A stretch of DNA of 64,000 bases from Gammaproteobacteria bacterium (GTDB lineage Bacteria; Pseudomonadota; Gammaproteobacteria; Natronospirales; REEB76). Below are positions 20,197 to 39,039 of this stretch, in pieces. The position numbers were made by a program, and so were the translations under genes. The notes below the pieces were generated by a model. It did not search any database and was not told the origin of the DNA. It worked only from the letters and a program-made list of their open reading frames with translations. The stretch's first letter is position 1, and each line of letters begins with the position of its first letter. The stretch covers positions 5,579 to 69,578 of the forward strand of contig DATBAJ010000060.1 of the NCBI GenBank assembly GCA_036271575.1, given 5' to 3'.

Positions 20197-20715
20197 ATGC
20201 CAGTTCCTGCATATATGAAGATCGAGGGCGTCACCCAGGGCAACATCACCGAGGGTGCGAACTCCGAGGAGAGCGTCGGCAACATCTACCAGGAAGAGCA
20301 TGCCGACGAGATCCTGGTCCAGGCCTTCAAGCACGACATCAGCATCCCGCGCGACCCGCAGAGCGGCCAGCCCACCGGTACCCGCGTGCACCATCCCATG
20401 GTCATCACCAAGATCTTCGACAAGTCCTCGCCGCTCCTGTACCAGGCGCTGGTGACGGGCGAGCGTCTGACGGTGACCGTGGAGTGGTACCGCACCTCTC
20501 CGGAAGGCACCGACGAGCAGTACTTCACCATGGCCCTCGAGGACGCGGTGATCGTGGACATGAACGCCTACATGCCCAACTGCCAGGACCCCGCCAATGC
20601 GCACTTCACGCATCTGGAGGACGTGTCCTTCACGTACCGCAAGATCACCTGGACGCACAACGTCGCGGGCACCGAGGGTAGCGACGACTGGCGCACCCGC
20701 GGCAGCAAGGGTTGA
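20197..20715 (+). CDS. hcp: T6SS tube protein Hcp (Vibrio/Pseudomonas H2-like type)
   Basis: 'MPVPAYM.IEG.TQGNIT.GA...ESVGNIYQE.H.DE','PRDPQSGQPTG.RVH','DKSSPLL','FTYRKITW.H'. Confidence 0.97.
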   Translation: MPVPAYMKIEGVTQGNITEGANSEESVGNIYQEEHADEILVQAFKHDISIPRDPQSGQPTGTRVHHPMVITKIFDKSSPLLYQALVTGERLTVTVEWYRTSPEGTDEQYFTMALEDAVIVDMNAYMPNCQDPANAHFTHLEDVSFTYRKITWTHNVAGTEGSDDWRTRGSKG

Positions 20716-20796: not shown

Positions 20797-20852
20797 GTCG
20801 TGCGCGTATCTATATATGAGGAGCTTGGATGAGGATGGCTGGGTCAAGACAT

Positions 20853-21620
20853 ATGCGGCGCTTGAATGCGGCTCTGGGCGCCTTGGGCCTGGGCTTGCTG
20901 CTTGGGTCCTGCACCTCGGCGCCGCCGCAGCTCACGGTGCAGCCGGACGGCTGGACCTACGGTCCGCGGCTGGTGACGCTGCAACTGGAGGCGGCCGAGG
21001 CGCTCAACCTGGACAGCGGCCAGGCGCATGCGCTGTCGATCGGCATCTTCCAGCTCTCGGACCCGGCGGTGTTCGGCACGGCGACCGCGAGTCCCGCCGG
21101 CGCATCGAAGTTCCTGGACCAGGGCGCGGATGCGGATGCCAGCGTCGTGGATTTCGACCGGGTGGTGCTACAGCCCGGCGAGAAACGCACCGTGTACCTG
21201 AACCGCGCCGCCAACTCCCAGTACGTCGGCATCGTGGCGGGCTATTACCAGCTCGTCGTGCTGCAGGACGTGGCGCTGTTCAACATCCCGGTGATCCCCA
21301 AGCCCGTGGGCTGGGTGACCAAGGGCATGATGGCGGTGGGCTTGCAGGGCGCCGACACCGACGGTATCCCGGGCCCGCTGGCCTTGAGCGTCGGCTTCGG
21401 CCCGGATCAGGTGGCGCGCTTCGCCTCGGATACCGCAGGTAGCGCGCGGATCTTCGCCGCCAAAGGCGGCAAGGGTGGCGGCGGTGCGGCCGCCGGTGGC
21501 AAGGGCGGTGGCGGCGGCGGTGCCAAGTCGGGCGGGAAGATGCCCAGCCTGCCCACCAGCCTGCCGAGCATGCCCAAGGCGCCGTCCAGTTCGGGCGGCG
21601 GGAGCAGCAGTGGTGGTTGA
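20853..21620 (+). CDS. tssJ: T6SS lipoprotein TssJ with Gly/Lys/Ser-rich tail
   Basis: Lipobox 'LLLGSC','LNLDSGQAHAL.I.IFQLSD','LQPGEKR','YVGIVAGYY'; precedes tssK. Confidence 0.85.
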   Translation: MRRLNAALGALGLGLLLGSCTSAPPQLTVQPDGWTYGPRLVTLQLEAAEALNLDSGQAHALSIGIFQLSDPAVFGTATASPAGASKFLDQGADADASVVDFDRVVLQPGEKRTVYLNRAANSQYVGIVAGYYQLVVLQDVALFNIPVIPKPVGWVTKGMMAVGLQGADTDGIPGPLALSVGFGPDQVARFASDTAGSARIFAAKGGKGGGGAAAGGKGGGGGGAKSGGKMPSLPTSLPSMPKAPSSSGGGSSSGG

Positions 21621-21659
21621 GATGAGATTCACAGTGTCGAACGATGGAGAGGTAGCGTC

Positions 21660-23045
21660 GTGACCCAGTACCGACCGTTATTCTGGCATCAGGGCTTGTT
21701 CCTGCAGCCACAGCATTTCCAGCTCAACGACCTGTACCAGCAGGAACGGCTGATGCCCTTCCAGCGCTACCTGCACCCGCACTTCTGGGGTGTGGCACGC
21801 ATGGCGCTGCAGACCTCGGCGCTGGCCAACGGCGTGTGCGAAGTGCAGGACGCCGAGTTCCTGTTCCCGGACGGCAGCTTCGTCAGCGTGCCCGGCAACG
21901 GCGTGATGCTGGCGCGCAGCTTCGATCCGGCGGCCATCACCCTCGACAAGCCCTTCACCATCTATGCAGGCCTGCGCAAATGGCGCTCCCATGAGAGCAA
22001 CGTGACCGTGGTGCCGGACCTGACCCAGGTCGCGGGCGTGACCACCCGTTACGTGAGCCCGGCCCAGCCCGAGGATGTGCCGGACGTGTACCAGGAAGGC
22101 CCCGAGGCCAAGGTCCGCTCGCTGTATCACGTGGTGCGGCTCCTGTGGGACGGCGAGCAGGATGAGCTGGTGGACCATGAACTGATCCCCATCGCGCGCC
22201 TGGTGCGCGACGGCGATAGCCTCAAACCAGCGCCGGATTTCATACCGCCGGTGCTTAGCCTGGAGAGTTCGGCGGAACTGTATCGCCTGGTGCGCGACAT
22301 GCGCGACGAGTTCACCAGCCGCGCGCTGCAGATCGAGGTGTACAAGACCCCGGTGCACGGCGAGTCGGACTTCGATCCGGCGCTGCTGCGCTACAAGCTG
22401 GCCTTGCGCACCCTGGCGCGCTACGTGCCGCTCTTGATGCACTACAGCGAGACGCCCTCGGCCCATCCCTGGGACCTGTACGGGTTATTGCGTTCCTTCG
22501 CCGGCGAACTCAGCACCTTCGGCATGCGCCTCAACCTCCTGGGCGAGGACGCGCAGGGCAACCGGCAGATACCGGCCTACGACCACCAGAAGCTGGGCGC
22601 CTGCTTCGAGCGGCTGCGCCGGCTGATCGTCGAACTCCTGAACGAGATCACCATCGCACCGCAGTTCAAGGTGGACATGCAGTTCGACGGCACCGCCCAT
22701 ACGGCGATGATCCCGCCGCGCTTCCTGGAGGAGCCGAACGACTATTACCTGGTGTTCAACCTGCGCACGCCCATCGAGCAGCACCTGGATACCATCGCCA
22801 CCGCCGCCAAGCTCGGCGCGCGCAACACCGTGGAGTCCCTGGTGGAACGCTCGCTACCAGGCATCGCGTTCCGCTACACCCAGGTGCCGCCGCCCGGCCT
22901 GCCGCGCCGCTCCAACACCCACTACATGCGCATCGACACCCGCGACAGCCAGTGGCCGGACGTGGAGCGCAGCCGTGAGCTGGGCTTCGTCTGGAAGGAT
23001 GCGCCGGAAGACCTGCGCATGGAGCTGGTGGTGCTGAGGAGATGA
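21660..23045 (+). CDS. tssK: T6SS baseplate TssK
   Basis: 'LFWHQGLFLQPQHFQ','FWGV','FPDGS','DFIPP','YDH','LPGI'. Confidence 0.95.
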   Translation: MTQYRPLFWHQGLFLQPQHFQLNDLYQQERLMPFQRYLHPHFWGVARMALQTSALANGVCEVQDAEFLFPDGSFVSVPGNGVMLARSFDPAAITLDKPFTIYAGLRKWRSHESNVTVVPDLTQVAGVTTRYVSPAQPEDVPDVYQEGPEAKVRSLYHVVRLLWDGEQDELVDHELIPIARLVRDGDSLKPAPDFIPPVLSLESSAELYRLVRDMRDEFTSRALQIEVYKTPVHGESDFDPALLRYKLALRTLARYVPLLMHYSETPSAHPWDLYGLLRSFAGELSTFGMRLNLLGEDAQGNRQIPAYDHQKLGACFERLRRLIVELLNEITIAPQFKVDMQFDGTAHTAMIPPRFLEEPNDYYLVFNLRTPIEQHLDTIATAAKLGARNTVESLVERSLPGIAFRYTQVPPPGLPRRSNTHYMRIDTRDSQWPDVERSRELGFVWKDAPEDLRMELVVLRR

Positions 23046-23049
23046 GCGG

Positions 23050-23724
23050 GTGCGACTGATCGACTGCTACGCGGAGTTCCTCATCAAGTTGCACGGCCGG
23101 TTCGCACCCGGCGGCGACGTGGCCGGGCTCGCCTATGAGACCCAGCGCGCCGAGATCGCCGCCAAGCTCAAGGCCTGCGACCGCCGCGCCCAGGAAGCCG
23201 ACATCGCGGCGACCGCGCGCGATGCGGCCAGCTTCGCCGCCATGGCCTACGTGGACGAGCTGGTGCTGTGCTCGGACTGGGCGGAGAAACCGCGCTGGCA
23301 GGCGATGCCCCTGCAACGCGAGTACTACCGCACCACCAACGCCGGCGCGGAGTTCTATACCCGCCTGGAGAAGCTGGGCGAGGACGCACCGGGCCGTGCC
23401 GCGCGCGAACTCTATTACCTGTGCATGGCCTTGGGCTTCAGGGGCAGGTATTTCAGCGACCAGCGTTTCGCCGAGTTCACCGCGGTCAAGCGCGCCAACC
23501 TGCGCCTGCTCTTGCCGGACAGCGATGGCCTGGACCTGCAGGCGGTGACCTTGTTCCCGGAGGCCTATTCCAACGCCCGTGCCGGCGGCAGCGGCCTCTC
23601 CGGCCGCTGGAACGTGTTGCCCTGGGTGTTTGCAGGCCCGGTGCTGCTGCTCCTGGTGGTGGTGCTGCTCTATCACCACTACATCGCCGACACCCTGACG
23701 GGCATCCAGGCGCTCCTGAGATGA
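23050..23724 (+). CDS. tssL: T6SS TssL (DotU), single C-terminal TM, no OmpA domain
   Basis: 'AYVDELVL','PLQ..YY.TTNAGAEFY.RL','YYLCMALGFRGRY'. Confidence 0.95.
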   Translation: MRLIDCYAEFLIKLHGRFAPGGDVAGLAYETQRAEIAAKLKACDRRAQEADIAATARDAASFAAMAYVDELVLCSDWAEKPRWQAMPLQREYYRTTNAGAEFYTRLEKLGEDAPGRAARELYYLCMALGFRGRYFSDQRFAEFTAVKRANLRLLLPDSDGLDLQAVTLFPEAYSNARAGGSGLSGRWNVLPWVFAGPVLLLLVVVLLYHHYIADTLTGIQALLR

Positions 23725-23734
23725 CGGGCCCGCG

Positions 23735-26700
23735 ATGCTGAAATCCATCCTCAAGTTCCTGCTGTGGCTGCTGGTGGTGGTGCTGGTCTGCGCCGCCGTC
23801 ATCGGCTTCTATATATATAAGGACTGGCCGGTGAGCCATGCCCTGCTGTGGCTGGCGGGCCTGGCGCTGGCCTGCGTGGTGTTCCTGGTCATCCGTCGCA
23901 TCGTGATACGGCGTCGCGCCAAGAAGCAGGTGCAGAAGCTCATCAGCGAGGAGCAGGTGCGGCGCGAAGGCGGCCTCACCTGGTCGCCGCGGGCGCTGCG
24001 CCGCGACCTGAAGCTGCGCTGGCAGGGCGGCATCAAGGCCCTCAAGCGCTCGCGCCTGCGGCTCTTGGGCGATCCCTTGTACGTGCTGCCCTGGTTCGTG
24101 GTCATGGGCCGCTCCAGCTCCGGCAAGAGCACCGCGGTCAAGAACGCCTATCTGCTGTCGCCGATCCTGGACATGCCGGAGCGGCAGGCGGGTTCGACCC
24201 GCAACCTGGATTGGTGGATGTATGAGGAAGCGGTGGTCATCGACACCGCCGGACGCTATGCGGTGCCCGAGGACGTGTCCCGTGACCGCAGCGAGTGGGA
24301 TCAGCTGTTGGCGCTCTTGTCGCGCCGCAAGCAGAAGGAACCGCTCAACGGCATCCTGGTGGTGGTGGGTGCCGACCGGCTGCTGAGCGCCAGCGCCGAT
24401 GACCTGCTGGAGGAAGGGCGCCAGGTGCGCACCAGCCTGGGGCATCTGATGAACACCCTGGCGGCGCAGGTGCCGGTGTACCTGCTTGTGACCAAGTGCG
24501 ACCTGATCGAGGGGTTCACGCCGTTCTGCGAGTCCTTGCCGCAGGAGAGCTGGCGCCAGGTGATGGGCGCGCTCAACGGCAAACCGGGCGCCGACGTGAT
24601 GCTGGCTCTCGACGAATGCCTGGACAAGCTCAACACGCGCCTGAAAGACCTGCGCCTCCTGCTGGTGGAGCGCACCCAGAATCCCTCCATCGAGATGATG
24701 TTCTTCCCGGACGCCTTGTATAAATTGCGCGACGGCCTGCGTCACTTCACCGACGGCGCGCTGCGCGGCAGCCCTTATCTCGAGACCCCGCATTTCCGCG
24801 GCCTGTTCCTGTCCTCCAGCCAACAGGTGGAGACCGATGAACACGGCAGGGAACTGCATGACCGCGGCCTGTTCCTGCACGATCTGTTCACCAAGGTGAT
24901 GCCGGCGGACCGGGGCCTGCTGGTGACGCTGCCGGCCGCGGAACGGGTGCGCCGGGCGCTGCATCACTATTGGCTGGGGATAGCCGGCGGCCTGCTGTTC
25001 GCCGCGGCGCTGGTCACGAGCTTCCTGTTCCTGCACGACTACCATGCGCTGCACGTGATCGACGGCGGCCTGACGAAGGTCAACTTCGCGCCCGGCGACG
25101 TGAACCAGGACGTGCTGGCCCTGGCGCAGGTGGACGCCACGCTCAACGACCTGGAAGCGGCGCACGACGGCTGGCTGTTCCCCTGGTACGCGGGTCTCGA
25201 GCCGCCGCAGCTGGATGCCATCAGCGGCGGCTTCGTGCAGCGTTTCGACCAGGGCGTGATCGAGGACATGGACCGCCGCCTGAAGAACCGCCTGGCGCTC
25301 ATCAGCCCGGGGGATCCCGCGGTGCAAGTGCTGGCAGAGGGCCTGGCGCGCCGCAGCCTGATCCTGCAGGCGCGTCTCGACGACGCGGATGCCGATGACC
25401 TGCACCAGCTCGCGCCGGTGCCGACGGCTTACTGGCAGGAACTGCAGCCTGAGCTCACGGCCCAATCCGGCGATGCGCTGCAGGCCCTGTATCCGGAATA
25501 CGTCTCCTATGACGGGGACGATGCCGCCATCCAGCGCGAGCAGGCGGTGGTGCGCGATGCGCTGGTGGAACTGCTGCAGAAGACCACCGGCGACTACGCC
25601 TGGTTGCTGAACCTCGCCAACCATGCGCCGGGCCTGAACCCGGTCGCGCTGGATGACTTCTGGAGCGGCACCCATCCCCTGGCGGACCCGCCCTCGGTGC
25701 AGCCGGCCTACACCGCCGCAGGTTTCAAGATCATCAAGGACTTCACCGACGAGATGCAGAAGGCCTCGGGCGGCAGCCAGAGCGGCCCGGTGCAGGACTA
25801 CATGGACAAGTTCTACGACTATTACCAGGGCGCCTACGTGGATGCCTGGACCCAGTTCGCCTCGCGTTTCGATGAGGGCAAGGACACGCTGGCGGACCGC
25901 TCCCAGTGGCTGGCCGTGGTGGGCAACCTGGCCCAGTCAGATCCGTACACCAAGCTCCTCGGCAGGATGCACGACGAGCTCGCGGTGCTGGATGAGGACG
26001 CGGCGGAACTGAAGACCTCGGTGGACTACTACCAGGAGGCGGCGACCTTCGCGCCGGCTTCCAGCACCAAACTCCCCGCGGCCAGCGGCGGTTTCGGCAA
26101 GGCGCTGGCGGGCTACGGCACCGGCATCCTGACGGGCTTGAGCAAGGAGGCCAAGGAGATCAACGGCCAGGTGAAGGCGATCCAGAAGCTCAACAAGAAA
26201 CCCAAGGTGAAGCGCGGCAAACCGAAGAAGGACCTGGAGACCGCGCTCGGGGATGCGGCCAAGGCCAACCAGGACTATGAGAAGGCGCTGACCCTGCTCG
26301 CGTTCAACTCCGACAACGCCAGCGAGTCCTATGCCAACATCTCGGCGCTCTATACCAACCCGGACAAGGTAGCGGGCAGCGGTACCGCCGGCGGCAATGG
26401 CTGGGCCGCGGTGCAGGCGCTGCAGCTCGTCATGGGCAAGCCCGCGCCCGAGACCCAGGCCTTCTGGACCGTGTACACAGGTCCCTTGCGCATGCTCTAC
26501 CAGTTCATGGCGCAGGACACCGCCTGCTATCTGAACCAGCAATGGAGCGGCCAGGTGCTGACCCAGACCGAGGGCGTGGACGAATCCAAGCTCCCGGAGC
26601 TGTTGATCGGCAAGAGCGGCCTGGTGTGGGGTTTCGTCGGCAAGACCGCCGCGCCGTTCCTGAGCAACAAGTATCAGGCGGGTTACACCCCGGTACGGGT

Positions 26701-27229
26701 GGACGACCAGGCGATCCCGTTCGATTCGGGCTTCATCAGCTATCTGAACCATGCGCTGGAGGGCACGCAGCTCGTGTCCACGCCGCAGGCAGTGACGGTC
26801 TCGGCCTTGCCCACCAACGTGAACACCGGCGCGAAGCTCCTGCCCTCCGACATCATGCTCACCCTGCAGTGCTCGAACGGCATGCAGGAACTGGACAACT
26901 ACAACGCCAAGGCCACCCAGACATTCAATTGGTCGGTGGGCAGCTGCGGCGACGCGGTGGTGCGGATCTTCATCGGTCCCTTGGTGCTGACGCGGGTGTA
27001 TTCCGGCTTGAAGGGTTTCCCGCAGTTCCTGGAGGACTTCAAGGACGGCGAGCACCTGTACAGCGCCGACGACTTCCCGGATTCGCGCGAGGAGCTCGCC
27101 CATGAGGGCGTCACCGCCATCCGCGTGCGCTATGCCTTCAGCGGTCAGAAGCCGGTGATATCGGCGCTGAAGGCGATCCCCCTGCAGACGCCGCTGGAAC
27201 TGGCGCGCTGCTGGACGGACGGGGGTTGA
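23735..27229 (+). CDS. tssM: T6SS TssM (IcmF)
   Basis: N-terminal TMs,'LYVLPWF','GRSSSGKST' Walker A,'IDTAGRY','PLNGI','PVYLLVTKCDL','FRGLFLSS'. Confidence 0.93.
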   Translation: MLKSILKFLLWLLVVVLVCAAVIGFYIYKDWPVSHALLWLAGLALACVVFLVIRRIVIRRRAKKQVQKLISEEQVRREGGLTWSPRALRRDLKLRWQGGIKALKRSRLRLLGDPLYVLPWFVVMGRSSSGKSTAVKNAYLLSPILDMPERQAGSTRNLDWWMYEEAVVIDTAGRYAVPEDVSRDRSEWDQLLALLSRRKQKEPLNGILVVVGADRLLSASADDLLEEGRQVRTSLGHLMNTLAAQVPVYLLVTKCDLIEGFTPFCESLPQESWRQVMGALNGKPGADVMLALDECLDKLNTRLKDLRLLLVERTQNPSIEMMFFPDALYKLRDGLRHFTDGALRGSPYLETPHFRGLFLSSSQQVETDEHGRELHDRGLFLHDLFTKVMPADRGLLVTLPAAERVRRALHHYWLGIAGGLLFAAALVTSFLFLHDYHALHVIDGGLTKVNFAPGDVNQDVLALAQVDATLNDLEAAHDGWLFPWYAGLEPPQLDAISGGFVQRFDQGVIEDMDRRLKNRLALISPGDPAVQVLAEGLARRSLILQARLDDADADDLHQLAPVPTAYWQELQPELTAQSGDALQALYPEYVSYDGDDAAIQREQAVVRDALVELLQKTTGDYAWLLNLANHAPGLNPVALDDFWSGTHPLADPPSVQPAYTAAGFKIIKDFTDEMQKASGGSQSGPVQDYMDKFYDYYQGAYVDAWTQFASRFDEGKDTLADRSQWLAVVGNLAQSDPYTKLLGRMHDELAVLDEDAAELKTSVDYYQEAATFAPASSTKLPAASGGFGKALAGYGTGILTGLSKEAKEINGQVKAIQKLNKKPKVKRGKPKKDLETALGDAAKANQDYEKALTLLAFNSDNASESYANISALYTNPDKVAGSGTAGGNGWAAVQALQLVMGKPAPETQAFWTVYTGPLRMLYQFMAQDTACYLNQQWSGQVLTQTEGVDESKLPELLIGKSGLVWGFVGKTAAPFLSNKYQAGYTPVRVDDQAIPFDSGFISYLNHALEGTQLVSTPQAVTVSALPTNVNTGAKLLPSDIMLTLQCSNGMQELDNYNAKATQTFNWSVGSCGDAVVRIFIGPLVLTRVYSGLKGFPQFLEDFKDGEHLYSADDFPDSREELAHEGVTAIRVRYAFSGQKPVISALKAIPLQTPLELARCWTDGG

Positions 27230-27250: not shown

Positions 27251-29026
27251 GTGGCTGACGAAGCCCAGGAGAAAGCCGAACGCCTGCGGCTGGTCTACCG
27301 GACCGAGACCGCGGGCCGCCCCAGCGACGTGGAGCTGCCGTTCCGCATCCTGGTGCTGGGCGATTTCACGCGCGATGCGCGCGCGGGCTTCGAGGCCGGC
27401 AACAAGGCCTTGCCGGTGCCGCGCGGCGCGCTCGACCCGATCCTGGCCAAGCTCTCGCCCAAGCTCAAGCTGCAGGTGCCGAACCGCCTGAGCGACGCCG
27501 CGGATGCGCCGCTGGAAGTGGAACTCGAATTCAGGAGTCTCGACGACTTCACGCCGGACAAGCTGATCCGCCAGGTGCCGGAGCTGCGCGCCCTGCTGGA
27601 CCTGCGCGCGCTCCTGTGGCGCTACCGGGAACGGGGCGCCGACCTGCGGCAGATCGCCGCGGATATCCAGGTGCTGCTCAAGGAATGGGAGATGGATACC
27701 CGCTCCGGGCGCTTCTGGCACGACGCGCTGAAGTCGCGGGTCGCCGCGCTCGGCGCCCACAACGTGGGCCAGATGCTGGCCGAGATCGACGCGCGCCTGG
27801 GGCCGCAGCTCGACCAGATATTGCATCACCCGGAGTTCCGCAGCCTCGAAGCCTCATGGCGAGGCCTGCAGTTTCTGGCGGAACGGGTGGACCAGACGGA
27901 GAACTGCCTGGTGGAGGTGCTGAACCTCTCGAAGCAGCACCTGCAGGAGGATTTCGAGGACGTGCCGGAGGTGGTGCAGTCGCAGCTCTACCAGCTCGTC
28001 TATACCGGCGAGTTCGGCCAGTACGGCGGGCGCCCCTACAGCCTGCTGGTGGGGGACTTCAGTTTCGGTCCCGGCGCAGCCGACGTGCGCCTGCTGCAGA
28101 ACCTGGCGAGCGTCGCCGCGGTGGCGCATGCGCCGTTCATCGCCGCCGCCGGCCCCGGGTTCTTCGGCCTCAACAGTTTCACGGGCTTGCCGCGGCTGCG
28201 CGACCTGCGCTCGCTCATGGCGGAACCGCAGTTCACCAAGTGGCGAAGCCTGCGCGAGAGCGAGGACGCCCGTTACCTGGCGTTGACCTTGCCGCGCTTC
28301 CTGCTGCGCCGCGGTTACGGCACGCCGGGACTCAAGGCGGCGGCCTTCGATTACACCGAGAGCTTCACCGGCGACGAAGACCGCTGCCTGTGGGGCAACG
28401 CCGCCTATGCCTTCACCACCCGTCTCGCGGCGAGTTTCGCCCGCTTCCGCTGGTGCCTGAACGTGACCGGCAAGGAATACGGCCGGGTCGAGGGACTGAC
28501 GGTGCAGGGCGAGGGACCTGGCATGGTGCCCACCGAGGTGGTGGTGGACGACACCCTGGAAGTGGACCTGTCGCGCTTCGGCTTCATCACCCTGACTGCC
28601 CACCGCGGCGAGAACGAAGTGGCGTTCTACACCGCGACTTCGGTGCAGAGCGTGCCGGAGGAGGAGGGCGCGACCCCGAGCGCCGGCATCGGCCGCAAGC
28701 TCGCCGCGCAACTCCCGTATCTATTGCTGGTGAGCCGCCTCGCCCATTACCTCAAGGTGATGCAGCGCGAGCACCTGGGCGCCTGGCGCAACCGCGCCGA
28801 GGTGGAGAAGGAACTGGGCCAGTGGATCCAGCAGTACGTGACCGACATGGCCAACCCGGCGCCGAGCGTGCGCGCCCGCCGGCCGCTGCGCCAGGCCAAG
28901 ATCGAGGTGGTGGAGGTACCCGGCAAGACCGACTGGTACCTGGTGAGGCTCAACATCACGCCGCACCTGAAATACCTGGGCTCGCCGTTCTCGCTGGCGG
29001 TGAGCGGCAAACTGGAAAAAGCATGA
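27251..29026 (+). CDS. Fused TssB-TssC sheath protein
   Basis: aa ~10-122 align by eye to TssB ('VELPFRILVLGDFT','DDFTPD..IRQVPEL'); from aa ~172 align to TssC ('MLAEID.RL..QLDQILH','SWRGL','RLAHYLKVMQRE','TPHLKYLG'). Confidence 0.9.
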   Translation: MADEAQEKAERLRLVYRTETAGRPSDVELPFRILVLGDFTRDARAGFEAGNKALPVPRGALDPILAKLSPKLKLQVPNRLSDAADAPLEVELEFRSLDDFTPDKLIRQVPELRALLDLRALLWRYRERGADLRQIAADIQVLLKEWEMDTRSGRFWHDALKSRVAALGAHNVGQMLAEIDARLGPQLDQILHHPEFRSLEASWRGLQFLAERVDQTENCLVEVLNLSKQHLQEDFEDVPEVVQSQLYQLVYTGEFGQYGGRPYSLLVGDFSFGPGAADVRLLQNLASVAAVAHAPFIAAAGPGFFGLNSFTGLPRLRDLRSLMAEPQFTKWRSLRESEDARYLALTLPRFLLRRGYGTPGLKAAAFDYTESFTGDEDRCLWGNAAYAFTTRLAASFARFRWCLNVTGKEYGRVEGLTVQGEGPGMVPTEVVVDDTLEVDLSRFGFITLTAHRGENEVAFYTATSVQSVPEEEGATPSAGIGRKLAAQLPYLLLVSRLAHYLKVMQREHLGAWRNRAEVEKELGQWIQQYVTDMANPAPSVRARRPLRQAKIEVVEVPGKTDWYLVRLNITPHLKYLGSPFSLAVSGKLEKA

Positions 29027-29068: not shown

Positions 29069-29557
29069 ATGCCGATACCGGGAAATCTGACGTTGGTGGG
29101 CAAGGAGCAGGGGCCGATCGAGGGTTCCTGCGACATCGAGGGCCGTGAAGATACCGTGCTGGTGCAGGCCTTCAAACACCTGGTGGAGGTGCCGACCAAC
29201 GAGAACGGCGTGCCTTCAGGCAGGCGCGTGCACCGGCCCTTGATGATCACCAAGGAGGTGGACAAGAGCACCCCTAAGCTCTATCAGGCCCTGTGCAGTG
29301 GTGAGGTGATGAGCGAGGCCACGCTGCGCTGGTACCGGCTGGACGGTGCCGGCGACGAGACTCAATACTTCACGGTGATGCTGCAGAACGCGCTGATCGT
29401 GAAGGTGGATTCCTGGGTGCCGGACGTGCTGGACAAGCAGTTCGCCAGCTACACGAACATGGAGAACGTATGGTTCAGCTACGAGGTGATCCGCTGGACC
29501 TGGGAAGAGGACGGCATCGAGTACGAGGAACACTGGAACCAGGATCCCAACAAATAA
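29069..29557 (+). CDS. hcp: Second, divergent Hcp-family tube protein
   Basis: 'QGPIEGSC...GRED.VLVQAFKH','GRRVHRP..ITKEVDKSTPKLYQAL','E.V.FSY..I.W'. Confidence 0.92.
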   Translation: MPIPGNLTLVGKEQGPIEGSCDIEGREDTVLVQAFKHLVEVPTNENGVPSGRRVHRPLMITKEVDKSTPKLYQALCSGEVMSEATLRWYRLDGAGDETQYFTVMLQNALIVKVDSWVPDVLDKQFASYTNMENVWFSYEVIRWTWEEDGIEYEEHWNQDPNK

Positions 29558-29565
29558 GGTGATGG

Positions 29566-29973
29566 ATGTCCGAGGAGAGGCTATTCAAGCGCCTGCGCCG
29601 GTGGTCGGCGGGCGGTGCGACCGGGATCGACGTGGGCGGCTACGTCGAGTCGGTGCTGCAGGACTTGGGCAGGCTGTACAACACGCGCCGCGGCTCCACG
29701 CCCTTGAGCAGCCTGTATGGCCTCCCGGACATCTCCAACATGCTCGCCAACCTCACGCCGCCGGACGTGGAGCACATCCGTGAGGCCATCGAGACCACCA
29801 CCCGGGAGTTCGAGCCGCGCATGCAGGGGACCAAGGTGAGCCTGCCGGGCGAGGAGAGCTTGGGTGTGCTGCGTTTCGCCGTGCAGGCGGACTTGCTGTA
29901 CGAGAAGACCAGGATCGCACTGCGTTATCAGGTGAACATCGAAGGTGACGGGCGCGTCAGCGTGAGGCAATAA
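29566..29973 (+). CDS. tssE: T6SS baseplate TssE (gp25-like)
   Basis: 'L..LYNTRRGS','YGLPD','FEPRM'. Confidence 0.92.
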   Translation: MSEERLFKRLRRWSAGGATGIDVGGYVESVLQDLGRLYNTRRGSTPLSSLYGLPDISNMLANLTPPDVEHIREAIETTTREFEPRMQGTKVSLPGEESLGVLRFAVQADLLYEKTRIALRYQVNIEGDGRVSVRQ

Positions 29974-29978
29974 CCGAC

Positions 29979-31706
29979 ATGAACCGCGACTACTACCAAG
30001 GCGAATTGAACGCGCTGCGCGAGCTGGCCAAGGAGTTCGCGGCGGCGCATCCGGCGCTGGCCTCGCGCCTCACCGGCCCGAGCCCGGACCCGGACGTGGA
30101 GCGCATCCTCGAGGGCGTGGCGTTCCTGACCGGCAGCGTGCGTGAGAAGCTCGACGACGACTTCCCGGAGCTGGCCCAGACCCTCACCCAGCTCATCTAT
30201 CCGCATTACCTGAAGCCGCTGCCGGCCACCACCATCGTGGAGTTCCGCCCCAAGGACACCCTGCGCCGCAACGCGGTGATCCCCACCGGCACCTACGTGG
30301 ATTCCAGCGAAGTGCAGGGCACCCACTGCCGCTTCCGCACCTGCTTCGACGTGCGCATCTCGCCCTTGAGCCTGGTGCAGGCGCAGCTCCTGGAACGTCC
30401 GGGCGGCCGGCGCGCCATCGACCTGACCCTGCAGCTGAACGGCCTGGCGCTCAGCCAGTGGGACGAGGAGAAGTTGCCGCTGTTCATCGGCGGCGACTTC
30501 GCCGGAGCCGCGGACCTGTACATGCTGTTGCTGCGCGGGTTGGAGCGCATCGTGATCTCCACCGGCGCCGGCGAGCACGAGTTGCCCGCCTCGGCGCTGA
30601 AGCCGCTCGGCCTGGATGACGCCCAGGCCATGCTGCCGCGGCCGTCGGCTACGCTGCCGGCTTTCGGCCTGCTGCAGGAGTATTTCCTGCTGAAGGAGAA
30701 GTTCCTGTTCGTGGAGCTGAGCGGCCTGCAGTCCTGGCGGCAGCGCGGCAACGGCAACCAGTTCCACGTGCGTTTCGACTTCGCGCCCACCGAGACGCGT
30801 TTCCCGGTGGTGGACCGCGAACGCTTCGTGCTGCACAGCACGCCGGCGGTGAACCTGTTCCGCCATGACGCGGACCCGATCCTGCTCACCCACCGCCGCG
30901 CCGCGGTGCGGGTGCGCCCGGCGGGCGTAAGCGACGGCAACATCCAGGTGTATTCCGTGGACGAAGTGGTGGGCCACACCCGCGGTTCGGCGCTGCGCCA
31001 GGAATACCGGCCGGTGAACCTGTACGGCGCCGGCAACGCGCAGGTGCCTTATTACGACATGCATTTCGTGCGCGCCGCCGAAGGCGGCGGCGTGGAGCCG
31101 CAGTTGACGGTGGCCTATCCGCCGGGCGTGGAACTGCCGGCGCAGCAGACCCTGATCCTGGGCCTGACCTGCAGCAACGGCCGGCTGCCCTCGCAGCTCA
31201 GGCCCGGCGACATCTCGCGTTCCACCAGCGGCACCTCGGACCTGATCTCGTTCCGCAACATCCTGCCCCCGGCCGACGGCGCCGAGCCGCCGCTGGGCGA
31301 GGCGGTGCTGTGGCGGCTGCTCTCGCACCTGGCCCTGAACTTCCTGCCCATCGCCGACGCGGAGACCCTGCAGGCACTACTGCGCCTCTACGTGGTGCAG
31401 GGCGGCGGCCAGTCGCCGCGCGAGGTGGCGAACCACCGGCGCATCGCCTCCATCTCCAAGGTGGCCGTGCGCGCCGGCGACCGGCTGTTCGGCGCGGGCA
31501 TGATGCGCGGGCAGGAGATCCGCGCCAGCCTGCGCCAGGACCACTTCGCCTCGGCGGGGGACATGTTCCTGTTCGGCAGCCTCCTGGACCGGGTGCTGGC
31601 GACATTCTCCACCCTCAACAGTTTCAGCCTATTCACGCTCATGGATGAGCAAACCGGAAGCAGCTATACATGGCCAGCGAGACTGGGCAAGCGCGCGCTG
31701 ATCTGA
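29979..31706 (+). CDS. tssF: T6SS baseplate TssF
   Basis: 'YYQGEL..LRELAKEFA..HP','DPDVERILEGVAFL','LDDDFPEL','PAVNLF','LWRLLSHL.LN','WP.R.G'. Confidence 0.96.
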   Translation: MNRDYYQGELNALRELAKEFAAAHPALASRLTGPSPDPDVERILEGVAFLTGSVREKLDDDFPELAQTLTQLIYPHYLKPLPATTIVEFRPKDTLRRNAVIPTGTYVDSSEVQGTHCRFRTCFDVRISPLSLVQAQLLERPGGRRAIDLTLQLNGLALSQWDEEKLPLFIGGDFAGAADLYMLLLRGLERIVISTGAGEHELPASALKPLGLDDAQAMLPRPSATLPAFGLLQEYFLLKEKFLFVELSGLQSWRQRGNGNQFHVRFDFAPTETRFPVVDRERFVLHSTPAVNLFRHDADPILLTHRRAAVRVRPAGVSDGNIQVYSVDEVVGHTRGSALRQEYRPVNLYGAGNAQVPYYDMHFVRAAEGGGVEPQLTVAYPPGVELPAQQTLILGLTCSNGRLPSQLRPGDISRSTSGTSDLISFRNILPPADGAEPPLGEAVLWRLLSHLALNFLPIADAETLQALLRLYVVQGGGQSPREVANHRRIASISKVAVRAGDRLFGAGMMRGQEIRASLRQDHFASAGDMFLFGSLLDRVLATFSTLNSFSLFTLMDEQTGSSYTWPARLGKRALI

Positions 31707-32674
31707 AGCGCGAGCTGATCGCGAACAGCAGGGAGTACGACTTCTACCAGGTCGTGCGCCTGTTGCAGCGCCTGCGTGGCGAAGAGGAGGGCGGCGGCGT
31801 GCGCTTCCGGCCCCTGCTCGGCCTGGAACGCAGCGAGTCCGGCATCGCCGGCATGCGCGAGACCGAGGCCGGCTACGAGATCGAACCGACCTTCATGGCG
31901 CTGTACGGCGCGTCCTCACCCCTGCCGGTGTGGTACACCAGCGAGTTGCTGGAAGACGAGTGGCATGAGCAATCCGCCGCCCGCGACCTCCTGGACATGC
32001 TGCATCAGCAGATCTATCCGCTGCTGTATGCCGCCTGGCGCAAGTACCGGTTCGCGCTCAATGCCATCGAGGCGGAAGGCGGGGGCGAGCGCTACTGGGG
32101 GATGCTGTACGCCTTCATGGGTCTGTACGACCCGCAGATGCGGGCGCGGGTGCCGGATGCCGCCGGCTTCCTGGGCCAGACCGGTCTCTTCTGCCGCCAG
32201 GCGCGCAGCGCCGCGGCGCTGGAGGCGATGCTACGCGCGAGCCTGGGGCGCCGTGACGTGGAGATCGTCGAGTGCGTGCCGCGCCAGGCGGCGATCCCCG
32301 CCGACCAGCGCCTCAACATCGGCAAGGCCGGCTGCACGCTGGGCAGCGACGCGGTGGTGGGCGAGCGGGTGCTGGACTGTTGCGGGCGTTTCCAGATCCG
32401 CATCGGGCCCATCGATGCCGAGACCTTCAGCCTGGCGACACAAGAGGGCGGCCTGATCGAACGCATCCGGCGCATCTGCACCGAGTTCCTGGTGCAGCCG
32501 CTGGAATGCGAGGTGGTGCTGGTGCTGGACGAGGGCGTCGTGCAGCCCGCGGCACTGGGCGGCAACGATCTCAATCAGATGATGGGATTGAACGGATTCG
32601 CGAGCCTGGGCACCGATGCCTGGGTGGTGGGCGGCACCAATGCCGCCGGCCTGGAAGTGGGATTCATGCTCTAG
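31670..32674 (+). CDS. tssG: T6SS baseplate TssG
   Basis: 'YDFYQVVRLL','FMALYGASSPLP.WYT','AWRKYR','F.IRIGP'. Confidence 0.93.
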   Translation: MASETGQARADLKRELIANSREYDFYQVVRLLQRLRGEEEGGGVRFRPLLGLERSESGIAGMRETEAGYEIEPTFMALYGASSPLPVWYTSELLEDEWHEQSAARDLLDMLHQQIYPLLYAAWRKYRFALNAIEAEGGGERYWGMLYAFMGLYDPQMRARVPDAAGFLGQTGLFCRQARSAAALEAMLRASLGRRDVEIVECVPRQAAIPADQRLNIGKAGCTLGSDAVVGERVLDCCGRFQIRIGPIDAETFSLATQEGGLIERIRRICTEFLVQPLECEVVLVLDEGVVQPAALGGNDLNQMMGLNGFASLGTDAWVVGGTNAAGLEVGFML

Positions 32675-32721: not shown

Positions 32722-34245
32722 GTGGCGACGCCGGTATTCACATTCAAGAGCACCGCTTATGCGGCGGACGTGTTCAGCGTGGTGGACTTCCAGGGCACGG
32801 AAGCCATCTCCAGCCTCTATCAGTTCGACATCGGCCTGAAGTGCGACGTCTCCAAGACCGTCGATCTGAACACCCTGCATGCGAGTGCGGCGACGCTCTC
32901 GATCGCCAGCGACGGGACGACCAACGCCTACAGCGGCGTCTTGGCCTGGGTGGAGCAACGGCAGGTGGCGGGCGGCTACCGCCATTACCGCGTGCGCCTG
33001 GTGCCGCCGCTGTGGCAGCTGTCCCTCAATACCGGAACCAGCGGTTTCGTCTCCCAGACCCATCTGCAGGTGCTGCAGCAGTTGTTGAAGAACGCCGGTT
33101 TCACCTCGGGCGTGGACTTCGACACCAGCGCCGCCATCGCGAAATATCCGCCGTACGACTTCACCTGCCAGTACCGCGAGAGCAACCTGGCCTTCGCCAG
33201 CCGCTTGATGGAATACGAGGGCATCTATTTCTATTTCGAGGAAGTGAACGGCCAGTGCAAGCTGATGCTGGCGGACGGACTCGCCTATCCGGCCTTGCCG
33301 GCCCACGCCACCATCCCCTTCACCGATCCCGGCAGCACCAAGGATTACGATTCCATCGTCGGCCTCACCCAGCAGCTGGCGACGGTGCCGGCCGAGGTGG
33401 TGGTCACCGGATACACCTACCAGCAGCCGACGCTGGCGGTGACCGGCACCGGCGCGGTGAAGGTGAACGGTAGCGCCGTGACCGGGAGCCACAAGGCCTG
33501 GCTCTACGACCACCTGGTGCAGGACACCGATGCGGTGAAGCAACTCGCCCAGGTGCGCGCCCAGGAACAGGGTTGCTGGGCCTGCGTGTATTCAGGCAGC
33601 GGCGCGGTGCCCGGCCTGCGCGCCGGCTACACTTTCACCCTGGAGAGCCATCCGGTCGCCGCTTTCAACCGCGGCTATCTGGTGGTCTCGGTACAGCATT
33701 CCGCGCGCAACCTCGACCAGAGCTGGGGCACCGGCAGCTCCGCTTCCCAGGATGGCGGCAGCAACGATGCCTATTACAGCAACCAGTTCACCCTGGTGCC
33801 CTCGGGTGTGCAGTTCCGTCCGCGCCAAGTCACGCCGAGACCGCGCGTGGCCGGCTTGTTGTCGGCGACGGTGTACCAGTCGGCAGCGGCCAATGCCCTG
33901 GACTATGTCACGGGTGCCGATTCCGTCACCGGCATCAACGCCTTCACCCTGCCCATACCGCCCATGGATGACCAGGGCCGCTATCAGGTGAGCCTGCCCT
34001 TCGCCGACGGTTCGGTGCCGGGCTCGAGCGCGGTGTCGGCGTCGATACGCATGGCACAACCCTCCGCCGGCATCGGCGACATCGACGGCTTCGGCAACGG
34101 CGCGCAGTTCATGCTGGAGCCCGGCGCCGAGGTGCTGCTGGCCTTCGTGGATGGCAACCCGGACCTGCCGCTCATCTGCGGCGCGGTATACAACGGCCGC
34201 ATGATCTCCTGGCTGACTTCCGCGGTCTCCGCGCTGGCCTTCTGA
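32722..34245 (+). CDS. vgrG: VgrG (TssI), gp27-like hub + gp5 OB-fold only; no C-terminal beta-helix
   Basis: 'F.GTEAISSLYQFDI','QYRESNLAF.SRLME.EGIYFYF','YSNQF...P....FRP','DDQGRY.V','RMAQP.AG','GAEVLLAFVDGNPDLP.I.GAVYN' then stop 16 aa later. Confidence 0.88.
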   Translation: MATPVFTFKSTAYAADVFSVVDFQGTEAISSLYQFDIGLKCDVSKTVDLNTLHASAATLSIASDGTTNAYSGVLAWVEQRQVAGGYRHYRVRLVPPLWQLSLNTGTSGFVSQTHLQVLQQLLKNAGFTSGVDFDTSAAIAKYPPYDFTCQYRESNLAFASRLMEYEGIYFYFEEVNGQCKLMLADGLAYPALPAHATIPFTDPGSTKDYDSIVGLTQQLATVPAEVVVTGYTYQQPTLAVTGTGAVKVNGSAVTGSHKAWLYDHLVQDTDAVKQLAQVRAQEQGCWACVYSGSGAVPGLRAGYTFTLESHPVAAFNRGYLVVSVQHSARNLDQSWGTGSSASQDGGSNDAYYSNQFTLVPSGVQFRPRQVTPRPRVAGLLSATVYQSAAANALDYVTGADSVTGINAFTLPIPPMDDQGRYQVSLPFADGSVPGSSAVSASIRMAQPSAGIGDIDGFGNGAQFMLEPGAEVLLAFVDGNPDLPLICGAVYNGRMISWLTSAVSALAF

Positions 34246-34255
34246 GGAACGAGGC

Positions 34256-36889
34256 GTGCCCGGCATCCGCATCACCAAGCCTTTCAAGCTCAGCCTGCTG
34301 CACCGTACCTACCAGTACCGGGGCGAGAACAAGCTGGCGGTGAGCGTGCTCGGCATGTTCTCCCTGACGGAACCGGGCAAGGTGTTGCCGGAGAACGAGC
34401 TGTGGCGCAAGACGGTGGGCGCGCTCGGCCGTGACGGCATGTTGGATGCGGCCATGCCCAAGTCCCGGGCGGAGTTCCTGGTGAACGGCAGCTTCCATGC
34501 GCCGGGCGGCACGCCGGTGCCAGCGGGCTACGCGCGGGTGAAGCTCGGCAAGCTGGACAAGCGCATCAACGTATACGGCGATCGCCATTGGAAACGGGCT
34601 GCCGGCGTCAGCGTCGGGGTCTCGGATCCCCTGCCCATGCAGGACATGCCGCTGGATTTCGCCCACGCTCTCGGCGGCAAGGAGCACAAGCCTAACCCGG
34701 TGGGCAAGGGCATCGACGCGCTCGAGGTGGATGGCGAGTCGCGCATCCTGCTGCCGAACCTGGAGCTGCCCGGCGCGCTCATCGGTTCGCCCTCAGACCG
34801 CCCGGCACCCGCCAGCTACGGCATGCTGGATCCCATGTGGCCGCAGCGCTACGCCAAGGTCGGCACCTACGACCAGAAATGGATGAAGGAGCGCGCCCCG
34901 GGCCTGGCGGATGACCTCAAGTGGGAATACTTCAACGTGGCCGCCGAGGACCAGTGGAGCGATGACTATTGGCGCGGCGACGAGGAGTTCGAACTCCACA
35001 ACCTGCATCCTGCGCGGCCCCTGATCCAGGGGCGCCTGCCGGGCCTGGCGGCGCGCGCCTTCGTGGTGCATGGCCACGGCAAGGACGGACGCCTGGAGGA
35101 ACTGGCGACGCGGCTCGACACCGTGCATTTCTTTCCCGGCGAGGAGGGCGGCATCTGCATCTGGCGCGGCGACACCCGCATCACGACCGACGACGCCAGC
35201 GACGTGGCGCAGATCATGATCGCCTACGAACGCAGCGCCGATCCACGCCGCAGCCTGGAACACTATCAGGACGCATTGCGCCGCCGCCTGGACCGGACCA
35301 GCCGGGCCATGCTGCTACTGGATGAGCGCGACCTCATCCCCGACGGCGACAAATCCGGCCTGGCGGAAGTCATCGAGCGCTCTACCGACCACGACAGCAA
35401 AGAAGGCCTGTTGGCCAAGAACCAGAAGCAGAGGATGAAGGAGGAGTCCGCCAAGACGCGGGCGCGGCTGGCGGAATTGGGGATAGACACCGCGGTGCCC
35501 GAACCGCAGGCGGAAGCATCCGTCCCCAACCGTGAGCTGCCCGACATCGCCAAGCTGTTAGCAGACGCCCACAAGCAGCGCGCAGCGGCAGAGGCACAGG
35601 CCAAGGAGAAGATGGAAGCCATGTGCAAGCAGCTGGGCATCGATCCCAGCAAGGTCATGGGTCCCAAAGCGGCCGCCAACTTGCCGCGCTTCTCCGCCGC
35701 GGAGCGCCTCGCCAAGGTACGGGCGATGCTGGATGGCAGTCCGGGCTCCGAGGAACTGCTGAAGAAGATGACCGGCATCTCCGATCTGCAGGTGCTGGAA
35801 GCCAAGTTCCAGGCGGCCGAGGATGCATTCCGCAGCAGCTATGCCCTGGCAGCCCATACCCTGAGCAGCGGGCTGCCGGCGGAGCGCCAGGCCGGGCTCG
35901 TGGCCTTGCGGGCGGAAGTGCTGCAACGCCTGAAGCACGGTGAGTCCCTGGCGCGCATGGACCTGGCGGGCGTGGACCTGTCCGGTGCGGACATGAAGGG
36001 CGCGGACCTCTCCGGGTGCTATCTCGAATACGCGAATCTATCCGGTGCCGACCTCACGGGCGCCAGGCTCAAGGGCGCCATCGCCACCCACGTCAACTTC
36101 AGCGGCGCCAAACTCACCCAGGCGGACTTTGCCGGCGCCAACCTCGGCAAGTCCAGTTTCGTGGATGCCAAGGGGGCGGGCGTCGACTTCAGCGGCGCGG
36201 TGGTGAGCGAGACCAGCTTCGAGGCGAGCGCCTTCCCGGGGGCGAAGTTCCTCGGCGGGCAGATGATGAAGACCGATTTCAGCGGCGCCGATTTCAGCCG
36301 CACCGACTTCCAGAAGCCGCTGTTCATGGATTGCCGGCTGGACGGCGCCAAGCTGACCGGTGCGACACTGCAGCGGGCCATCGTCATGGGCGGCAGCGCC
36401 AAGGGCCTGGACCTGAGCGAGGCCCGGGGCGAGGCCCTGCTGTTCGTGAACGTGGACCTGGATCATCTCAAGGCGGCGCGGGCCGAGATCAACAAGCTGC
36501 GCCTGGTGGGCGCAGAGACCCGCGCGCGCGGCGCCGACTTCAGCGGCGCCAAGCTGCCGGGCTCCAACCTGCGCGGCATCGACCTGGAGGAAGCCAACTT
36601 CGAGCGCTCCATCCTGGATGGGGCGGATCTGAGCGAAGCCAGCTTGCGCAAGGCGCGCTTCCAGGGAGCCAGTGCCCAGCGCGCCCATTTCATGCAGAGC
36701 GACCTGGAGGGAGCGAAGCTCTCCAACTGCAACCTCAAGGAGGCCATGCTCAACAAGGCGCGCCTGGTGCAGGCAGACCTGACCGGCTCCAACTGCTTCG
36801 GCGCCGAGTTCCTGGGAGTGACGGTGGGTGAGACCCGTTTCCACGGTGCCAACCTCAAGCGCACCAAGCTCAAGGACTGGCACCCGTGA
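34256..36889 (+). CDS. DUF2169 domain + pentapeptide repeats (TagAB-like spike chaperone)
   Basis: 'LD..MPK..AEFLV.G','VYGDR.W','NPVGKG','LPNLE','WPQR...GTYD..W','FN.A..DQW','LDTV' and C-terminal A[D/N]LxG repeats. Confidence 0.88.
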   Translation: MPGIRITKPFKLSLLHRTYQYRGENKLAVSVLGMFSLTEPGKVLPENELWRKTVGALGRDGMLDAAMPKSRAEFLVNGSFHAPGGTPVPAGYARVKLGKLDKRINVYGDRHWKRAAGVSVGVSDPLPMQDMPLDFAHALGGKEHKPNPVGKGIDALEVDGESRILLPNLELPGALIGSPSDRPAPASYGMLDPMWPQRYAKVGTYDQKWMKERAPGLADDLKWEYFNVAAEDQWSDDYWRGDEEFELHNLHPARPLIQGRLPGLAARAFVVHGHGKDGRLEELATRLDTVHFFPGEEGGICIWRGDTRITTDDASDVAQIMIAYERSADPRRSLEHYQDALRRRLDRTSRAMLLLDERDLIPDGDKSGLAEVIERSTDHDSKEGLLAKNQKQRMKEESAKTRARLAELGIDTAVPEPQAEASVPNRELPDIAKLLADAHKQRAAAEAQAKEKMEAMCKQLGIDPSKVMGPKAAANLPRFSAAERLAKVRAMLDGSPGSEELLKKMTGISDLQVLEAKFQAAEDAFRSSYALAAHTLSSGLPAERQAGLVALRAEVLQRLKHGESLARMDLAGVDLSGADMKGADLSGCYLEYANLSGADLTGARLKGAIATHVNFSGAKLTQADFAGANLGKSSFVDAKGAGVDFSGAVVSETSFEASAFPGAKFLGGQMMKTDFSGADFSRTDFQKPLFMDCRLDGAKLTGATLQRAIVMGGSAKGLDLSEARGEALLFVNVDLDHLKAARAEINKLRLVGAETRARGADFSGAKLPGSNLRGIDLEEANFERSILDGADLSEASLRKARFQGASAQRAHFMQSDLEGAKLSNCNLKEAMLNKARLVQADLTGSNCFGAEFLGVTVGETRFHGANLKRTKLKDWHP

Positions 36890-37935: not shown

Positions 37936-37938
37936 ACG

Positions 37939-38598: not shown

Positions 38599-38609
38599 GG
38601 AGACATTCC

Positions 38610-39014
38610 ATGTTCGTCAACACGCAGATGGGCGGGCTCGCCTTCGGTTTCCCGGACGTGTGCTTCACGCCGATCCTGGTGCCGGTGCCGATCCCCTACC
38701 CGAACTTCGCCACCGGGCTCCTGGCCATGCCCTTCACCGCGGCGCTGAACGTGCTGAACGAGTGCATGCCGACCCACACCATCTCCACCATGGGCACCAT
38801 CAGCTTCGGCGACCAGCCGGGCATCGAGCTGGGCATCCTCTCGGGCCTGTTCATGGGGCCATGCCACACGCTGATCCCGAGCTTCACGCTGCTGAGCGAC
38901 GGCATGCCCACCTCGCGGCTCACCAGCATGACCGCCCATAACGGCTTCGCCCTCAACGCGCCCGGCCTGTCCATCGTGCCGAGCCAGTTCACCACCCTTT
39001 GCCTGATGCCCTGA
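38610..39014 (+). CDS. DUF4150 / PAAR-like spike tip protein (PIPY motif), no fused toxin
   Basis: 'FPDVC.TP..VPVPIPYPN','S.GD.PG...GI.SG','S.T....G.P..RLT..T.HN','PSQ'. Confidence 0.88.
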   Translation: MFVNTQMGGLAFGFPDVCFTPILVPVPIPYPNFATGLLAMPFTAALNVLNECMPTHTISTMGTISFGDQPGIELGILSGLFMGPCHTLIPSFTLLSDGMPTSRLTSMTAHNGFALNAPGLSIVPSQFTTLCLMP

Positions 39015-39039
39015 ACGGGCGCATCGCAGGAGTCTCGCC

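Follow-up and report, generated by a model that had tools for sequence, protein, structure and literature searches.

A compact TssB-TssC fusion in the baseplate block of a gammaproteobacterial type VI secretion cluster, a candidate adaptor for the first sheath ring

Introduction

[quoted passage not shown] In PVC, the dedicated initiator Pvc4 handshakes with a gp25-like adaptor and contacts the first-layer tube protein Pvc5 (PMC12546770). In the T6SS sheath, residues 15-28 of VipB are bound by ClpV (PMC4632598; PMC5048182), and the so-called Domain 3 is made up of five helices, three from VipB and two from VipA (PMC4632598). In roseobacters, a TssB-TssC fusion termed TssCL, whose function is given as unknown, occurs beside separate tssB and tssC genes (PMC9515649), and in Agrobacterium a second TssC, TssC40/ImpD, is non-redundant for Hcp secretion (PMC3702570).

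The present work concerns a T6SS cluster within a 64,000-nt stretch of gammaproteobacterial DNA, hereafter the window, in which a compact TssB-TssC fusion stands in the baseplate block in addition to separate tssB and tssC genes. Since TssCL has already been published (PMC9515649), such a coexistence is less surprising in itself; both TssCL and the apparently hybrid make-up of the cluster were missed by a preliminary description of this DNA, which was made from the sequence alone.

The fusion gene and its predicted fold

The fusion gene occupies positions 27251-29026 of the window (+) and constitutes, as the preliminary description had stated, a single uninterrupted ORF of 591 aa with zero internal stops in its translation. 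It begins with a GTG codon that is preceded by a GGAGG motif 9 nt upstream and by the stop codon of tssM 21 nt before. The proposed search for VipA and VipB domains on one chain was successful: Pfam assigns T6SS_VipA (PF05591) to residues 7-145 (E 1.3e-29), VipB (PF05943) to residues 174-466 (E 7.8e-101) and VipB_2 (PF18945), the gp25-like handshake domain, to residues 482-588 (E 1.6e-36), and both NCBIfam sheath models exceed their cut-off on this single chain. The TssB/VipA part (residues 7-145; 27269..27685, +) includes an N-terminal handshake strand that is kept family-wide, and shares 31% identity with the TssB of the cluster. It is followed by the joint (residues 146-171; 27686..27763, +), which contains one predicted helix (residues 151-164 in the model), and by the TssC/VipB part (residues 172-591; 27764..29023, +), which comprises the VipB core, the tube-contact helix, the handshake domain and the C-terminal strand and is 48% identical to the TssC of the cluster (TssC residues 64-488). 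The TssC-like match hence begins at residue 172, nt 27764, precisely where it had been placed before, while the TssB-like N-terminus is present but does not end at ~27616 as had been described, extending instead to about nt 27685.

An AlphaFold2 model of the fusion reached a pLDDT of 91.7 and a pTM of 0.92 from an input of 116 rows, although the alignment had wrongly placed the final 17 residues of its TssB rows within the region of TssC; an earlier model from 23 rows had been poor (pLDDT 52.7). The model predicts that the fusion adopts the fold of an entire sheath protomer. It matches VipB/TssC chains with TM 0.77-0.87 by target and Z 34-42, and, as one chain, the PVC, AFP and pyocin sheaths with Z 21-23 and rmsd 3.7-4.5 over ~300 residues, the aligning span being model residues ~27-578; sequence identity amounts to 7-10% for eCIS sheaths versus 46-48% for VipB. 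An engineered VipA-VipB fusion is reported to be functional. The compact family ranges from 562 to 598 aa with one VipA domain each, and the joint varies widely between its members in length and sequence. The alignment shows the handshake strands and the tube-contact helix to be retained throughout the family, and HMMs recover the C-terminal strand segment in 37/37 and the N-terminal strand segment in 30/37 fusions at more than 10 bits.

A complete protomer with a predicted fold like that of the single-chain pyocin and PVC sheaths would also suit another use, in which the fusion and Hcp2 form a second, separate and unrecycled homopolymer tail on the same baseplate, deployed under other conditions or with other cargo; the adjoining position of fusion and hcp2, as expected of a sheath-tube pair, fits this reading, which we nevertheless regard as unlikely for reasons of distribution and rates given below. 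Moreover, since donor arms and acceptor strands are both kept, the fusion could occupy any position of the lattice, and might be a minor subunit, either scattered over the length of the sheath or placed at its distal tip, whose invisibility to ClpV would serve to tune length, stability or disassembly. Precedents exist in PVC, which alternates paralogues along its trunk (PMC12546770), and in Bacteroidales, where minor Hcps are built into mixed rings that serve to load effectors (PMC13213661); gene position and covariation make a minor subunit of this kind quite unlikely here.

The strength of ribosome-binding sites was considered as a proxy for expression and dropped, as the signal was weak and mixed (medians of -5.8 for the fusion versus -7.9 for hcp2, with -8.7 for tssB, -6.8 for tssC and -8.5 for hcp1).

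Deletion at the joint and absence of the ClpV helix

Counting from anchor to anchor puts the shortfall at the joint at 57 residues relative to TssB plus TssC of the same cluster and at 57-79 (median 67) across 25 genomes, which agrees with the earlier estimate of ~60 aa. Because of this deletion the fusion cannot be put down to plain stop-codon loss, as the preliminary description had already argued. HMMs of the first two TssC helices and of the last TssB helices matched 0 of 37 fusions, whereas in held-out TssCs (>10 bits) the second TssC helix was recovered in 29/33 and the ClpV helix, for which this control is weak, in 1/33. A sequence pattern for the ClpV helix is present in 25/26 co-resident TssC N-termini and in 0/37 fusions, of which only the latter count serves as a test, since the pattern was derived from those same TssCs. 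The one predicted joint helix stands in place of the TssB tail and of TssC residues 1-63, ClpV helix included. In the structural comparison, the fusion model aligns to extended VipB from VipB residue 34 onward, so that fusion helix 151-164 may replace the second VipB helix, and VipB residues 15-28 have no aligned counterpart in the model. Domain 3 is the rebuilt part of the fusion. The earlier observation that the N-terminal helix of canonical TssC lacks a counterpart thus holds by pattern as well as by fold.

Devoid of both the ClpV helix and a free TssC N-terminus, the fusion would escape direct threading by ClpV. The unfoldase itself is kept in the cluster or genome, exceeding the cut-off in 4/5 genomes tested. 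One fusion cluster (L054, genome G061) carries no clpV between tssC and hcp1, and the G061 assembly, for which completeness is not given, contains no ClpV over the cut-off.

Organization of the cluster

The cluster is arranged in the order tssA-tssB-tssC-clpV-hcp1-tssJ-K-L-M-fusion-hcp2-tssE-F-G-vgrG-DUF2169/pentapeptide-pentapeptide-DUF3540-PAAR-like-gp5C, with all genes on the + strand. Its upstream tail module comprises tssA (13600..15261; TIGR03362, tree), the canonical tssB (15278..15781; Pfam, NCBIfam) and tssC (15833..17398; Pfam, NCBIfam, with the ClpV helix by pattern) of the main sheath, whose presence had been noted before, clpV/tssH (17454..20102; TIGR03345 over cut-off) and hcp1 (20197..20715; Pfam, NCBIfam, tree), the product of which would form the main tube. 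The genes tssJ-tssK-tssL-tssM (20829..27229; Pfam, NCBIfam) lie directly 5' of the fusion. Downstream follow hcp2 (29069..29557; PF05638), whose product is 39% identical to Hcp1 and would form the first tube ring, and tssE (29566..29973; TIGR03357), encoding the gp25-like putative docking partner that is also suggested by rate covariation. The baseplate wedge is encoded by tssF (29979..31706; Pfam, NCBIfam, covariation, tree) and tssG (31670..32674; Pfam, NCBIfam, covariation), and the vgrG hub, DUF2169/pentapeptide, pentapeptide, DUF3540, PAAR-like and gp5-C spike genes complete the cluster (32722..40407; Pfam, NCBIfam). In the 72%-complete assembly, no sheath, hcp, tssE or vgrG locus was found beyond this one.

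Several further features of the cluster deserve mention. VgrG is apparently split into a 507-aa hub/OB gene (32722-34245) and a 455-aa gp5-C gene (39040-40407) that stands after the PAAR-like gene; the single VgrGs of 868-931 aa in genomes G048, G052, G467 and G481 match both, and the split is common to close relatives of the window's genome. The canonical TssC bears a 33-residue C-terminal tail rich in Gly, Asp and Ala (17297-17398), TssC length being 513-527 aa in relatives of the same family and 482-503 aa elsewhere. Converging on the end of the cluster are genes for a trypsin-like protease (40414-41082, -) and a 1,958-aa surface protein with Ig/cadherin repeats (41134-47010, -).

Synteny and distribution of the fusion family

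After removal of overlaps, intact orthologues of the fusion were detected in ~47 other genomes, almost all of them Gammaproteobacteria, with Saccharospirillum, Oleispira and Litorivivens among the named carriers. Two records titled outside this class (L048, L051) are possibly mis-binned, given that their loci match gammaproteobacterial loci. The best 80 of 123 confirmed stretches from the genome scan yielded 69 loci with 34 whole fusions, 2 fusions cut by a contig start and 33 unfused tssB+tssC pairs; the matches in Geobacter, Bordetella and Nitrospirota, which resembled long fusions, prove to be such unfused pairs. Among the 34 whole fusions of these best 80 stretches, tssM precedes and hcp follows in 34/34, and tssE comes next after hcp in 33, the contig ending in the remaining case. 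The same tssM-fusion-hcp-tssE order was encountered in the fusion genomes added by later samples. Hence the preliminary suggestion to look for the same fusion in conserved synteny elsewhere has been answered by a fixed tssM-fusion-hcp2-tssE-F-G order. In the loci examined, the fusion gene always lies within the baseplate block and never beside tssA or tssB/C, which argues against a minor sheath subunit. Separate tssB and tssC genes are present in all 25 genomes with enough flanking DNA, and no cluster with intact flanks was seen whose genome has the fusion without them, a distribution that speaks against a self-sufficient second tail.

Full-length open matches to the fusion occur in 14/60 relatives, at 50-92%, and in every full-length match, down to 23% identity, the reading frame is open. 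When the class was sampled evenly with 400 genomes, sheath matches appeared in 85 others and the compact fusion in at least 3, a count that is a lower bound, as 77 weak matches stand outside it. The family of G064 carries the compact fusion in 11/61 genomes, and in the order of G371 no further fusion was found in 7 other genomes. On plasmids, 584 records match; each of the 25 that were listed matches in two pieces, which the annotation, if there is any, gives as tssB and tssC genes of their own. In a tree of TssC parts, the 16 fusions that were sampled fall into a single clade (support 100), to which 20 of the best 150 representatives of 50% clusters also belong (FastTree, support 91-95).

The window's genome is represented by a 72%-complete assembly of 76 contigs, and one might therefore suspect that the fusion stems from faulty assembly or sequencing, or that a stop codon was lost in this genome alone. 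Such an origin is refuted by the recurrence of the fusion in independent genomes, that is, in the relatives, loci and other-family genomes counted above, and is opposed by the residues deleted at the joint; furthermore, a contig from a separate study reads across the joint (27539-27928), and one contig of a possible source run spans the gene with zero differences, so its probability is negligible.

As judged by sequence, TssB-TssC fusion has arisen repeatedly and in several clades, although some singletons may be read-through or errors. The fusions among the 150 best representatives include 52 compact and 44 full-length ones with the handshake domain. A second type of 647-654 aa with an undeleted joint, belonging to a different clade, is found in 6/61 genomes of one family (L144-L150 in G486, G479, G472, G483 and G481, plus a match in G480); it is the only sheath match of its genome in 4 genomes, and ClpV over the cut-off was found in none of 3 such genomes tested. 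This longer fusion is a candidate for a single-chain, single-use T6SS sheath, and the apparent existence of single-chain main sheaths lends some plausibility to a second tail made of the compact fusion. A very divergent fusion with 23% identity (L133:10031-15141, G137) is followed by two hcp genes; the canonical tssB-tssC-hcp of this genome lies ~0.7 Mb away, and its TssC is without the usual ClpV-helix pattern. Proteins of 482-512 aa with VipA and VipB domains and no handshake domain are represented by P0025-P0029 and L132:1394-2923, and in the 14-kb stretch that holds the latter no other T6SS structural genes were recognised. In P0047, P0064, P0065, P0067, P0071, P0075 and P0109, sheath proteins of 970-2,151 aa, the TssB-TssC unit stands at the end, and some of them carry two VipA domains.

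Selection, evolutionary rates and covariation

The fusion is under purifying selection, with a dN/dS of 0.087 (range 0.018-0.148; 14 of 15 pairs measurable, the pairs not being independent), which amounts to 0.146 for the TssB half and 0.060 for the TssC half. Relaxed selection had been named in the preliminary description as grounds for refutation, as had the lack of a VipA domain and uniqueness of the fusion to this assembly; all three turned out otherwise. The low value for the whole gene, the open frame down to 23% identity and the retention of all polymer-facing elements also weigh against the assumption that the fusion has no structural role, being a decoy, a chaperone, a TssE- or Hcp-binding regulator or a slowly decaying relic of a sheath gene. 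The more relaxed TssB half, the variable joint and the existence of numerous truncated proteins that combine VipA with VipB but have no handshake domain would agree with such a non-structural fate, which is unlikely overall.

Relative to TssC, dN over 13 pairs is 2.4 for the fusion, 2.7 for TssE, 1.9 for TssF and 2.9 for TssG, compared with 1.2 for TssB, 0.6 for Hcp1 and 2.1 for Hcp2. The fusion hence resembles the baseplate and membrane genes, not TssB or Hcp1, in its rate, contrary to what a polymer-forming second tail would suggest. In addition, the fusion varies at 68 positions whose conservation in the co-resident TssB/TssC reaches 90% or more, and its TssB half is weakly conserved, which likewise disfavours a second tail.

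Residual branch rates, compared over 39 branches of 21 genomes with p-values that treat branches as independent, covary between the fusion and TssG (rho 0.66), TssE (0.59) and TssF (0.51), in contrast to TssB (0.18), TssC (-0.07), Hcp2 (0.19) and TssM (-0.56). TssC itself covaries neither with TssE (0.00) nor with TssG (-0.06). Known partners were recovered as controls (TssJ-TssM 0.70, TssF-TssG 0.59, TssB-TssC 0.42), TssK, which has no sheath contact, still scores 0.28-0.41, and the pattern persists in subsets of 18 and 14 genomes. As the neighbours TssM and Hcp2 do not covary with the fusion, adjacency alone cannot explain the signal with TssE/F/G, to which shared ancestry or expression level could contribute. 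Covariation with the wedge rather than with TssB, TssC and Hcp1 is at odds with a minor subunit along the sheath, while it would be expected under a second tail as well.

Apparently hybrid ancestry of the cluster

From its gene trees, all of which are quick LG+G4 or FastTree reconstructions on subsets chosen for spread, the cluster looks like a hybrid of two T6SS types. A branch of support 100 separates Hcp2, which falls with the Hcp of the Geobacter, Bordetella and Nitrospirota loci, from Hcp1, whose nearest company is the Hcp of G262, G396 and G436. A single clade uniting Hcp1 and Hcp2 is rejected (AU p 3e-5), though not when only a distant outgroup is used (p 0.33). TssF (support 98) and TssK (92) side with the Geobacter/Bordetella-type loci, the TssK clade including one row of the other type, whereas TssA (support 99) and 6/8 ClpV rows (94) group with the second type, on the side of Hcp1. 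The TssE tree resolves to neither type. The second type presumably resembles Vibrio cholerae-like clusters. The Geobacter/Bordetella-type loci were found by fusion-derived patterns, so a loop motif shared with them does not count as independent support; their detection made no use of Hcp, TssF or TssK.

In these loci, an unfused tssB-tssC pair stands before hcp-tssE at the very place of the fusion, which fits the reading of the fusion as a former resident pair. For the TssC part, tree tests are compatible with both origins of the fusion (p 0.20 and 0.33), and the best tree of TssB+TssC, contrary to this reading, places the fusion beside the co-resident pair (support 84), with a resident origin not rejected (p 0.27). 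The fusion may be the former tssB-tssC pair of the resident T6SS, retained as an interface, and a second tail module, tssA-tssB-tssC-clpV-hcp1, would then have arrived from another system.

Proposed role in the first sheath ring

With a probability of roughly 55%, the fusion constitutes a low-copy, baseplate-proximal first sheath ring and Hcp2 the first tube ring. The fixed place before hcp2-tssE-F-G, the baseplate-like rate and the covariation with TssE/F/G lend indirect support to this first-ring reading. In V. cholerae, TssE is proposed as the acceptor of the ring-1 strands, and Domain 3 of that ring contacts TssF/G (PMC5813253; see also PMC5924787). By extension, the fusion ring would sit on the TssE/F/G wedge, with its N- and C-terminal strands docked on TssE and its rebuilt outer domain touching TssF/G. 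The arms of TssB/TssC would in turn be received by the handshake domain of the fusion, and on the fusion and Hcp2 rings the main TssB/TssC and Hcp1 polymer would then grow. Hcp2 would bridge VgrG and Hcp1, a weaker step, since Hcp2 covaries neither with the fusion (0.19) nor with TssE (0.10). Not being threaded by ClpV, the fusion may remain on the baseplate between shots.

Other points count against a dedicated first ring. V. cholerae needs no special first ring (PMC5813253), and a first ring might show an asymmetry between donor and acceptor elements, of which none is seen in conservation across the fusion family (acceptor strands 0.45 versus donor arms 0.52 and 0.36).

A more tentative extension, possible rather than probable, is that initiator rings of the eCIS style evolved here for sheath and tube alike from displaced tail genes of the system itself; these rings, of the ClpV-blind fusion and of Hcp2, would serve as a plug adaptor through which a foreign contractile tail could use the resident baseplate, and would be left in place after firing as a seed that can be used again.

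If true, a dedicated first ring would change the picture of T6SSs as systems that lack initiators, and it would provide a natural handle on how contraction is transferred from baseplate to sheath and on whether the baseplate end survives ClpV. It would also offer a testable idea for the role of second TssC genes and exemplify how T6SS modules of different ancestry are joined despite specific interfaces. Even if it is no initiator, the fusion is a real, conserved and hitherto undescribed T6SS component under selection, with cultured, non-pathogenic carriers such as Saccharospirillum alexandrii LZ-5 (locus L058).

Comparison with known systems

The fusion shares all three Pfam domains with canonical TssB/TssC (VipA/VipB; PDB 3J9G, 5MXN, 5URW), to which its VipB part is closest in identity (46-48%) and fold (Z 34-42), handshake strands and tube helix included. 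Canonical TssB/TssC is a heterodimer of two gene products, whereas the fusion is one ORF and one chain; canonical TssC has the ClpV helix (VipB 15-28, PMC4632598), whereas the fusion is devoid of it and of 57-79 residues of Domain 3. In contrast to the canonical pair, the fusion is a second, faster-evolving copy located in the baseplate block.

TssCL is likewise a natural TssB-TssC fusion co-occurring with separate tssB and tssC, but measures 1,684 aa with two VipA domains, compared with 591 aa and one VipA domain here, and was found only in Alphaproteobacteria (PMC9515649), whereas the compact family is almost wholly gammaproteobacterial. The TssCL-sized proteins P0075 and P0109, whose identity as TssCL is not established, fall into a clade other than that of the compact fusions. 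TssC40 resembles the fusion as a second tssC-like gene in its cluster, displaced from the main pair towards tssE; it is described as a TssC homologue with neither a TssB part nor an adjoining second Hcp (PMC3702570), both of which accompany the fusion. A TssB-TssC fusion as such has thus been published (TssCL, PMC9515649), while neither the compact family nor any initiator ring of a T6SS was described in the literature searched, which covered few subscription journals.

Like Pvc4, the fusion is a single-chain sheath paralogue that is encoded close to the genes of the main sheath and accompanied by a second gene for a tube protein (PMC12546770). The position as initiator has been shown for Pvc4, whereas for the fusion gene order and rate covariation may hint at it; unlike eCIS sheath proteins, moreover, the fusion derives from T6SS TssB/TssC, and its locus encodes a membrane-anchored T6SS with tssJKLM and clpV. 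Taken together, the compact fusion belongs neither to the canonical heterodimer class nor to TssCL and, by analogy, probably works like the eCIS sheath initiator Pvc4.
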